Shown here: piece by piece, positions 29,281-32,764 of the stretch | Numbering within the stretch: position 1 is the stretch's first letter | Layout: each line of letters begins with the position of its first letter | Origin: Octopus sinensis | Lineage: Eukaryota | Assembly: GCF_006345805.1 (NCBI RefSeq) | Contig: NW_021834880.1 | Coordinates: forward strand, 1-47,930 | Direction: 5' to 3' | DNA: 47,930 bases | The notes under the pieces: generated by a model | Told to the model about the DNA's origin: nothing | Databases searched by the model: none | Seen by the model: only the letters and a program-made list of their open reading frames with translations | Translations under genes and position numbers: made by a program

Positions 29281-29439
29281 ATATATATATATATTATATA
29301 TATATATAATATATATATATATATATATTGTTATATTTCGGAATGGTCATTTTGCCAGTTTAGCCAATAAAAACACACGTATTTGGTGTTATTTTGCTTC
29401 ATTGTTATTTATTTTTTACATTAATCTTAATCTTATTTC

Positions 29440-29484
29440 GGCCAGAGTTCTTTCGTCACACTCCTGTGACCGCATCAGTGGTCC
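29440..29484 (-). ncRNA. Minimal hammerhead-like motif in the PLE pLTR (variant core CUGAUGC)
   Basis: GGACCA-CUGAUGCG-GUCACA(GGAG)UGUGAC-GAAA-G(AA)C-UC-UGGCC, on the same strand as the ORF; identical at 46680-46724. Confidence 0.65.
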
Positions 29485-30059
29485 TTTGTTTTCTTCTTTC
29501 TTATTTGTGTCTCCCCTTACTAACCGTCAGCCATTTTGTATTTCTATTGTATGTCTTCATTTGCGCATGTTTATATCTCTATGTGCGTTTATGTTTATTT
29601 AGTGTGTGTATGTGGGGGGATGCCTGTAATATTTGTTTCTTCTGTTTATATATGTTCATGTAATTTGTATTTTGTTTTTTGTTTTTGTTGTTTTTTGTTT
29701 ATTCTTATTTTGTTCATGTGTTTACATCCACTTATTATTATCATTACATATGCTTGTATGTATAACAACAATACTAGTAATAATAATAATAAATCGAATC
29801 GAAAATATATATATATATATAATATATAAATAAAAAATTAAAAAATTAAAAAGTTAAAAGAAAAATCTACACACACACTCATATATATATATATATATAT
29901 ATATATATATATATATATATATATATATATATATATATATATATATATATATATATATATATATATATATACATATACATACATATACATATATATAGCT
30001 ATTTATTTCTATTAGTTTATTTATCTGTGTATTTATTATGTTTTCATGATCCTCTATTG

Positions 30060-32550
30060 TCATATGTTGTGGCATGTGTTAGTGCTCCATTCTAGTTTTC
30101 TATTCAGGCTAGGTTTATTTTCTACTATGTATGTAGCTTCTGTAATTTGTCTAATTGTTGCATCTGATCTATGTGTGGATAATATTTTAATTTCTATGTT
30201 ATTGATTGATCCCCCGTGTTCCTGTTTGGCGTGTTGGTACAGAATCGATGAGCTTTTACCTTCCTTGAGTTGTCTCCAATGCTCATTTACCCGCTCTCCT
30301 ATGCTTCTTGCCGTTTCCCCTACGTATGGCGTTGTCTTGTTACTGCATCGTCCCTCTATACATCTTATACTATAGACTACATTTCTGGCTTTACAGTTTG
30401 TTTGTGGGCTAAATCTACATACAGTAGTTATCTGTACAGGGTGTTTTACTAAAAGGATAGGTTCTACCAATTATAGATTTGATAGGGTTGCCTGGCTTTT
30501 CAACAACCTTAATTCTTAGTTTAAGTTTGTCTAGGGTCCTTCTAAAGCGGTACGCCAGTTCACCTCCAGGGGTGGTGTCAACGAACATGACACTCTGGTA
30601 TTTATGGCTATCATACCAAGAGTTGGCCTTCCCTATTTTCTTTTTGTCCTTTCTATAGTGTTCCATGACTTGTTCCTATAGAGTGGGCAAATCCCATTCC
30701 TATCATTACATAATATATTATCAAATTTCTTAATGGCTCCTTTGTATACTCTGATCCTTTCTTTATGGCTGTAACCTGAGAACTGCATGCGGTGAATGAA
30801 ATATTGTATGTGTCTCTTTAACTCTGTAGGCTCGCACATGCGTGACACATTTCTCATTATTCTGACGAGGTCTGCCATCAAAATATTGAATTTGGCATTG
30901 TCGCAATGGCTGAGTTCCGGTGGATCAAGTATTTTGAGGCCATAGGTTTGGCATAGTATGAATGAAGGATTTGGGTTTTATTATTCACAATTTTTAGCCA
31001 GAGTTCGGTGTCTAGTACTGGTAGTCTATGGTTGGGGTGTTTAGTGGGGTAGTCTATTGTGACCTTAATACTCTGGTGGATGGAGTTAGCTATTTGCTGG
31101 ATGCTCTCCATAGTATTAGTTTCTATTACTATATCAACATTACTCTCTTGTGGGGGTGCCTTTACCACTATGTTGATATCATCAACATAGCGAGAGTACA
31201 TGTTTACGAGTATGGAGTTCTGTGTTAGGCGTTCTTTAAGCCTTCTGTCCCACCATACCATGAAAAGGTTGGCCACATCACCAGCGATACTAACGCCGAT
31301 GGCTGCCCCCTCGTCCTGGGCATATATTTTATTATTAAACTTAAACGTGTGGCCTTTTAGGGTAACTCTTATACTAGCTCCTAGTGCATGTGTGATCATT
31401 TTCTTTATCTGATGGACATTTGCGGGGCTCCGTATGGCTCTGGTCCATCCGCGCCATCTTTCTATATGTGTCTTCCTAGCCATAGAAGTAATTGTGGGCG
31501 GTCTACCTCTTAAACATCTACTGGGGCAGAAACTACTAAGATTATGTTTATCTAAGTATTCATAATTACATGTCAGTCTAAGTAGGAGGCCCAGTTCTTC
31601 TGTGTTGACATTACAGAACTCCACCTGGCTCTCATTGATCATCTCCACGCACTTCTCCACCGCAAAATCTACGTCGATCGATGGGTATAGGGATACCACA
31701 TCCATGCTACCCACCATACATTCTGTCAGGTCACAAGTGCTGTTACAGTCATCGATCCTGCCGAGGAGATCTTCTGTGCTGTCACAAACATCAGGTGACA
31801 TCCGGATTATAGGGCGTATGATCATTGAGAGGAAGTAGGAGATTCTGTAATTGCTAGCGATATTCGCTCCACAGACTGGTCTTGTTGGTGGTCCTACTAT
31901 AGGGTCAGTAATTTCTTTATGGTCCTTGCGAAGTCCATACAGTGCCGGGATATCATTGTTCCAGGCTTGGAAATTATTTGCTGTACGTTTCTGGGGTCCC
32001 AGAACAATTGTCCACATCATTATGTGGGCGTTGAGGATCTTTTCTCTCTCCTCGTGTGCCTGTACAGTTGTTATTTTCGTATTGGCGATATGAGGTTGCA
32101 TTGCCTGGATGTAGTTCGGTAAGCTGTCTATTGACATCTTGCCGGACTTATCTGTGAGACGGCATACCACCTCTCCGTTCCTCGTGCGCTGAATGAGCTT
32201 ATGTAGGCCACATGCAGGTTTAATCCCGAGTTGTTGGGCCTCTGTCTTATTCTGTCTCTGTCTCTTAGTGTATAATCTAAAATCTGTCTAAGTTTGGTCC
32301 TAGCTATAGTGAACTGTGCTTCCATGTGGTCATTAGTATGTCTTGGGATGAGAGACTCTTTTGTTGAAGGGTAATGTTGTTGGATAAATCCGGCTCATGC
32401 AGTAAGTTTTGTCACATACGTTGAAGAATTGAGTGTCAAAGGGGTGGGTATACATGTCAATGGTCATTCTAGGGTTATCTTCATTATCGTTACTGTTTCC
32501 ATCATCAGCCTCCTATTATTATTACTACCATTACCACTACTATTATTATT
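30060..32550 (-). pseudogene. PLE polyprotein (RT, Cys linker, GIY-YIG endonuclease), split by frameshifts
   Basis: TDKSGK, LYGLRKDHK..PTRPV, SMDVVSLYPSI, QDEGAAIG, YSRYVDD, LPVLD, YAKP; linker PCTDNYC/VCRFSPQTNC; VVYSIRC...YVGETAR...RVNEH; ITEATYIVENKPSLN. The main open segment is 30878-32170 (430 aa). Confidence 0.95.
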
Positions 32551-32764
32551 ACCATTCCGAAATATAACAATATCTGTTTCAACACACGACTTCACATAAA
32601 AAATCTTGCACAGCAAATATTTAAACGTATATATATATATAAGACTAGACTTGTTTTCTAATAATATCTTCATTTAGTTTACTTTTATTTACTTATCTAG
32701 AACTTTCTGAGTCAAGACCATGCTGGATCGTCAACTTCATGCATACATATGTGTATTATATCAT

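Follow-up and report, generated by a model that had tools for sequence, protein, structure and literature searches.

Penelope-like element insertions in octopus DNA: two internal outer ends, paired arms, and a preference for (AT)n

The window analysed here is a 47,930-nt stretch of Octopus sinensis DNA (contig NW_021834880.1, forward strand). It contains two dead insertions of a high-copy, endonuclease-bearing Penelope-like element (PLE). The long copy lies at 29325-32627 on the minus strand, and the short copy at 46411-46843 on the plus strand. As a preliminary description had stated, the two share one layout: the tail pieces are 93% identical over 72 nt, and the 3' bodies are 90% identical over 450 nt. 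The antisense continuation it reported in the long copy is also present, as an exact 23-nt inverted repeat (29325-29347 and 32551-32573). The long copy is 5'-truncated, its ORF is split over several frames, and its inverted arm meets the body across about 6 nt of imperfect homology. All four outer ends of the two copies adjoin (AT)n. The short ends stop at different positions, ORF +26 in the long copy and about +19 in the short copy. The features are listed below.

29280..29328, no strand: (AT)n next to the long copy's short end
29325..29350, minus strand: short end of the long copy, the first 26 nt of the next ORF, where the arm stops; ATG at 29350
29351..30059, minus strand: 3' UTR and pLTR, including an internal (AT)n tract at 29881-29997
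29440..29484, minus strand: minimal hammerhead-like motif in the pLTR, read from the sequence and its fold
30060..30470, minus strand: remnant of the CX4CxxC linker and putative GIY-YIG endonuclease frame (CCHH, VVY...YVG, R)
30471..32550, minus strand: remains of the ORF with the reverse transcriptase, 5'-truncated and frameshifted; longest open frame 30878-32287
32551..32573, plus strand: inverted arm, covering ORF +4 to +26 as the 23-nt inverted repeat
32574..32627, plus strand: the inverted arm's tail, covering ORF +27 to +80, with +82 as the apparent end if the shared TA is counted
32628..32641, no strand: (AT)n next to the long copy's tailed end
46379..46410, no strand: (AT)n next to the short copy's tailed end
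46411..46465, minus strand: the short copy's tailed arm, covering ORF about +23 to +80
46457..46843, plus strand: the short copy's short-ended arm, covering the pLTR from about -364 to +19 and carrying a hammerhead-like motif from 46680 on
46839..46924, no strand: (AT)n next to the short copy's short end

Other repeats were also found in the window. The left flank of the long copy (28684-29290) belongs to another high-copy repeat with internal inverted arms of 134 nt, which are 93% alike. Some copies of this repeat likewise finish in (AT)n, and it may be a miniature inverted-repeat element. Tandem repeats occupy 26839-27558 (period 348 nt, 98% alike) and 18738-19140 (period 162 nt).

Exact searches of the octopus-type genome G000 returned 1703 matches to a 24-mer of the tail and 3396 to a 23-mer of the pLTR, and none to the reversed controls; the shared layout is therefore not due to chance. 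The family comprises well over a thousand insertions in this genome. The element has a single ORF, and open frames of 900-1120 aa were found in other G000 copies. A structure model of an intact relative, built from a protein alignment, had a pLDDT of 88.8, and its top five Foldseek matches were all TERT structures; a Pfam RVT_1 match was obtained under the curated cut-off. The pLTR overlaps the ORF start, and tandem and inverted copies are present (L105, L107/L108, L111, L145). The motifs, the telomerase-like reverse transcriptase model, and the pLTR layout agree with the earlier assignment to the PLEs.

Alignment of 56 proteins showed that C654, Y661, C665, Y677, G679, R688, H708, and H713 are invariant, and these motifs point to a C-terminal GIY-YIG endonuclease with CCHH. 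GIY-YIG gave no Pfam match, and none was among the listed fold matches of the whole-protein model. A single-sequence model of the endonuclease had a pLDDT of only 38, and a profile search of solved structures gave two weak bacterial reverse transcriptase matches and nothing else. The linker cysteines C638, C643, and C646 are also invariant among the 56 proteins and form a CX2-5CxxC pattern; the motif compared with DKG is DKSG. By the criteria of Craig et al. 2021 (PMC8557442), the element would be a C-terminal EN+ PLE of the Neptune or Nematis type, a comparison made by published description and without named reference sequences. The Hydra clade was ruled out, as CCHH, DKSG, and CX4CxxC are present here, whereas CCHH is absent there and the corresponding motifs are DKT and CxCX5C. 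Naiad/Chlamys, with an N-terminal endonuclease, was ruled out by the C-terminal position here. The closest named protein, 96% identical, is labelled Octopus vulgaris.

Several other features of the family were observed. A hammerhead-like motif lies 100-140 nt upstream of the ATG; its core reads CUGAUG followed by C, where A9 is usual. In the predicted fold, with C at core position 9, stems I and II appear (z -1.68), and the motif has no Rfam match. This C is found in the G000 copies, and the usual A in the loose-end consensus of run X5. The ORF carries a long Asn/Ser-rich low-complexity stretch from the LPPKY motif to the reverse transcriptase (L097:3264-6623, L098:3210-6341, L104:4355-7003). 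Locus L107/L108 (G000:C17:58532000-58547900) is a tandem array of internally deleted units with a period of about 3.9 kb; one of its outer ends is short and the other tailed. Related subfamilies are represented by diverged tails and ends at L044:1417-1463, L025, and L026, one of which adjoins an insertion of the present family.

The tail could be placed by read-through copies (L105, L111, L145, and others), in which the pLTR continues into the short end, the tail, and the coding region. [quoted passage not shown] In G000, exact counts gave 1607 ends that stop at +26 before (AT)3 and 1809 copies that read into the tail; only 21 exact matches were found to a pattern crossing the tail end into the ORF beyond. 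Together, the read-through copies and these counts place both junctions inside a pLTR-ORF transcript. The preliminary description had located both priming sites at the RNA 3' end; they are internal instead, within the first 26 and the first 76-85 nt of the ORF. It had also tied the tail to an inverted 5' piece. Of 20 regions around long copies, read by eye, 6 had the tail on the arm that carries the ORF and 7 had it on the shorter or other arm. The tail thus sits on either arm and is not bound to the shorter piece. No consistent structure emerged when RNA of the ORF start was folded (z from -2.33 to -0.02).

Outer ends were counted in a sample from chromosome C1, for which DNA was taken from the surroundings of motif matches: most of the first 100 listed for the tail and the first 100 listed for the pLTR. 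This sample is in positional order, is anchored on exact motifs, and includes at least one duplicated locus (L310/L311). The motif filter passed 231 of 234 arms, and two of the three dropped arms look real but divergent. Short ends were at ORF +26 in 76/100. Tailed ends were at +82 (73), +85 (20), or +76 (14) in 107/127. These positions are apparent, since bases common to the element and (AT)n were assigned to the element, and exact junction placement is impossible within pure (AT)n. The proposal of fixed outer junctions holds in that two ends are strongly preferred, but the tailed end has three common positions and not one.

Head-to-head arms pair strictly by end type. Among the head-to-head pairs of the C1 sample, 71/74 were short+tailed (73/76 before the motif filter), none was short+short, and none was tailed+tailed; the median span was 417 nt. 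An overlapping mixed sample of 126 pairs, which includes loci chosen for unique flanks, contained 118 short+tailed, 3 short+short, and no tailed+tailed pairs. No partner was found within the fetched DNA for 83 of the 231 C1 arms, many of which run off the fetched stretch; about 30 of the partnerless arms look single-armed by eye and count against the pairing rule.

Inside the insertions, the short-ended arm reaches further toward the 5' side in 41 C1 pairs and the tailed arm in 11. The inner junction is variable, as had been suggested: of 73 simple cases, 58 show an overlap of 1-13 nt between the arms, 6 a blunt joint, and 9 additional bases (approximate values from BLAST overlaps). Subfamily alleles are common to both arms of one insertion at +18 in 107/109 and at +12 in 97/102. 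The median divergence is 2.9% between arms within one insertion versus 4.9% between arms of different insertions. This agreement could alternatively reflect subfamilies active at different times, or gene conversion. The 5' ends of the arms cluster at two spots, -193 to -175 and -27 to -16 from the ATG (27 and 30 of 181 C1 arms), and several insertions have perfect palindromic centres there. The cluster near -20 is in part biased by the search pattern. These clusters could be a transcription start, pause sites, or places of preferred homology. A pile-up of 5' ends at the hammerhead cut site was rejected, as 6/181 arms of the C1 positional sample end within 3 nt of it.

In the C1 sample, (AT)n adjoins 66/100 short ends and 99/127 tailed ends. 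The background, measured in 20 fixed-spaced 10-kb stretches (200 kb), is 3.9% of positions, and the enrichment is about 17-20-fold. The preliminary description had held that (AT)n is targeted and had taken an association at background level as evidence against it; the association is far above that level. When flanks were tabulated for the C1 short+tailed pairs, most had (AT)n on both sides (44/71), 15 had it on one side, and 12 on neither. However, about a quarter to a third of the ends lie outside (AT)n. The repeat is thus a preferred target and not an obligatory one.

The flanking DNA could be scored in 117 short+tailed pairs, of which 39 have non-repetitive flanks; these 39 include loci selected by patterns requiring G/C in the flank. 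An exact target-site duplication of 10-16 nt was found in 27 of the 39, with a mode of exactly 12 nt (10 pairs), and 12 pairs had no exact duplication of 10 nt. As a control, crossed flanks between loci reached 10 nt in only 4 of 1482 combinations. One more unique-flank pair, fetched later, has a duplication of 13 nt. The duplicated sites in unique DNA are 78% AT, yet they are not (AT)n. In both window copies the duplication is unreadable because they lie in (AT)n. Short homology at both outer junctions, also proposed earlier, was confirmed: clean cases average 2.9 nt for the short end (n=24) and 2.2 nt for the tailed end (n=23), compared with 0.8-1.3 nt for simulated 12-nt insertions under the same scoring, in which some template variants were guessed (weakest p about 0.002). 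The duplication and homology values were read from filled sites only, as empty alleles were not encountered. The left flank, used as a query, matched only the neighbouring repeat family and no second allele. At the unique-flank locus L212, contigs in all four runs cross from the element end into the right flank, and among the joints listed none skips the whole insertion.

Taken together, the two arms probably arise from a staggered cut of about 12 nt in AT-rich DNA, with both 3' overhangs serving as primers for reverse transcription at two sites inside the RNA, close to where the ORF begins. The endonuclease cut would leave two 3' overhangs of about 12 nt, each of which would be joined to an antisense element strand. 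Such a cut fits the duplication and the sense 3' end that faces outward on both sides. Target-primed reverse transcription from both overhangs would start at about +19 to +27 and about +70 to +85, with 2-3 nt of base pairing assisting at each overhang; microhomology would then join the 3' ends of the two cDNAs. One RNA or two per insertion would both be compatible with this scheme. Two properties probably favour (AT)n: cutting of AT-rich DNA by the enzyme, and the AU-alternating bases available at both start sites. The mechanism of the preliminary description comes close to this model, with the sites internal instead of 3'-terminal; its core idea has been published.

A more specific form of the two-overhang model is put forward only tentatively. 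A dimeric particle would hold a single RNA, make a cut with a fixed 12-nt stagger, and load two reverse transcriptases at a constant spacing of about 56 nt (coordinated twin priming). The leader would start at +26, and the follower, at +82, would displace the cDNA of the leader; each overhang would choose its exact start by 2-3 nt of pairing. If true, this would explain the one-sided tail, the head-to-head arms, the shared alleles, the greater reach of the short arm, and the microsatellite bias, and it might be a general integration mechanism of PLEs.

Fold-back self-priming on the antisense template, proposed in Arkhipova et al. 2013 (PMC3846280), would give a hairpin; asymmetric resolution by the endonuclease would leave one tail, and both ends would be joined to the target. 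Craig et al. 2021 (PMC8557442) refer to an 'EN-mediated resolution' of the tail. Self-priming would account for the alleles common to both arms and for perfect central palindromes (L043, L327, L328, L353), and it predicts one tail per insertion. However, fold-back on a tail-primed cDNA needs a tailed arm that reaches at least as far as the short arm, and the short arm is longer in 41 of the 52 unequal pairs. Fold-back on a short-primed cDNA cannot provide the tail. Because neither arm is consistently included in the other, a simple fold-back of a single cDNA fails, and only a version with later trimming survives. The in vitro data of Frangieh et al. 2024 (PMC11167929), in which sense RNA is the template from both strands, also speak against self-priming, which we regard as unlikely. 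The same study bears against the two-overhang model as well: it reports that initiation occurs at sites lacking homology to the cut DNA and that the start site does not differ between strands, a behaviour that alone would not produce the strict pairing.

The (AT)n flanks might instead be mostly secondary, if short AT-rich sites were hit and the repeats grew later, or if insertions in repeats survived better. The 27/71 pairs that lack (AT)n on one or both sides, the AT-rich duplications in unique DNA that are not (AT)n, and the failure to see an empty site would suit this explanation. It is nevertheless improbable: the enrichment is large, young, near-identical copies already lie in long (AT)n on both sides, and copies that inserted into (TAA)n and (CA)n have ends in phase with the repeat (L008, L341, L071). 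Least credible of all is the original proposal that both primings occur at the RNA 3' end and that the tail is sequence beyond the integrated end, always an inverted 5' piece. Both window copies and most short insertions do have this look, but the tail is ORF sequence that runs on into the coding region, and in 6 long copies it lies in sense orientation on the ORF-bearing arm. An RNA that is processed so as to end at about +85 would still be conceivable.

The element itself is an ordinary member of its class, and the insertion layout is already known for EN+ PLEs. A related process is known in human LINE-1, where both target 3' ends may prime (twin priming), giving a head-to-head joint with microhomology and a target duplication. 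In LINE-1, the position of the second site varies and each of the two cDNAs is made from a different part of the RNA; the octopus element has two fixed sites, and its arms are copies of one and the same region.

Closer parallels are found among the PLEs. In Adineta vaga, according to Arkhipova et al. 2013 (PMC3846280), the first 12 codons belong to the pLTR, one inverted pLTR carries a 31-bp tail, and target duplications measure 8-10 bp. The octopus element resembles these elements (Pen2a_Av and Pen2_Av) in that its pLTR extends into the ORF start, its tail, at one end, adds codons (about 10 in Adineta), its pLTR is inverted with an overlap at the inverted junction, and its ORF has an Asn-rich stretch. 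It differs in tail length (about 50-59 nt here, 31 there) and duplication (about 12 bp here, 8-10 bp there), and it has a CX4CxxC linker, (AT)n as the main target, and thousands of ends. With Neptune and Nematis, as described by Craig et al. 2021 (PMC8557442), it shares the putative C-terminal GIY-YIG with CCHH, the CX2-5CxxC linker, a DKG-type motif, the inverted 5'-truncated copy, the one-sided tail, and the microsatellite bias, which those authors linked in Neptune to the linker. Their published tail is 30-40 bp, often at one end only, which the 50-59 nt here exceed. The (TA)n bias, the inverted copy, and the one-sided tail are thus already published (Arkhipova 2013, Craig 2021).

The layout and two start sites have been published for other animals; no publication was found, in mostly non-subscription literature, on this PLE family in cephalopods, on the strict pairing, or on the junction homology, to which Figs S1B and S2 of Frangieh 2024 and the supplements of Craig 2021 may be relevant. 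No dedicated paper on head-to-head arms, microhomology, or both strands in PLEs was found, and no PLE cryo-EM structure since 2024. A 2026 repeat annotation of Octopus vulgaris lists 31 recently active PLE families, and no junction description was found in its available text. Related literature includes Cervera and de la Pena 2014, Goubert et al. 2022, and a 2026 preprint on retrozymes. What is new is quantitative: the counts, chiefly those of the strict short+tailed pairing and the junction microhomology.

These counts bear on a question named as open in Craig 2021, the origin of the inverted arms, the one-sided tail, and the microsatellite bias of PLEs, and on later steps left unvalidated by Frangieh 2024. 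The octopus family provides thousands of natural products, and natural copies with long open frames exist. Any in vitro model would have to reproduce three rules: one short and one tailed end, a stagger of about 12 nt, and homology of 2-3 nt. In the available in vitro system, Poseidon of Anolis carolinensis (Frangieh et al. 2024, PMC11167929), both strands are cut and extended, and two internal start sites bound the tail. Poseidon and the octopus element share two internal starts in the 5' region of the ORF and AT-rich targets; the Poseidon pLTR has a hammerhead, and the octopus pLTR a hammerhead-like motif. The Poseidon start sites are 111 nt or more into its ORF. Its authors report that these start sites lack homology to the cut DNA and do not differ by strand, whereas the octopus junctions show 2-3 nt above the null, and each of the two octopus sites is used once per insertion.
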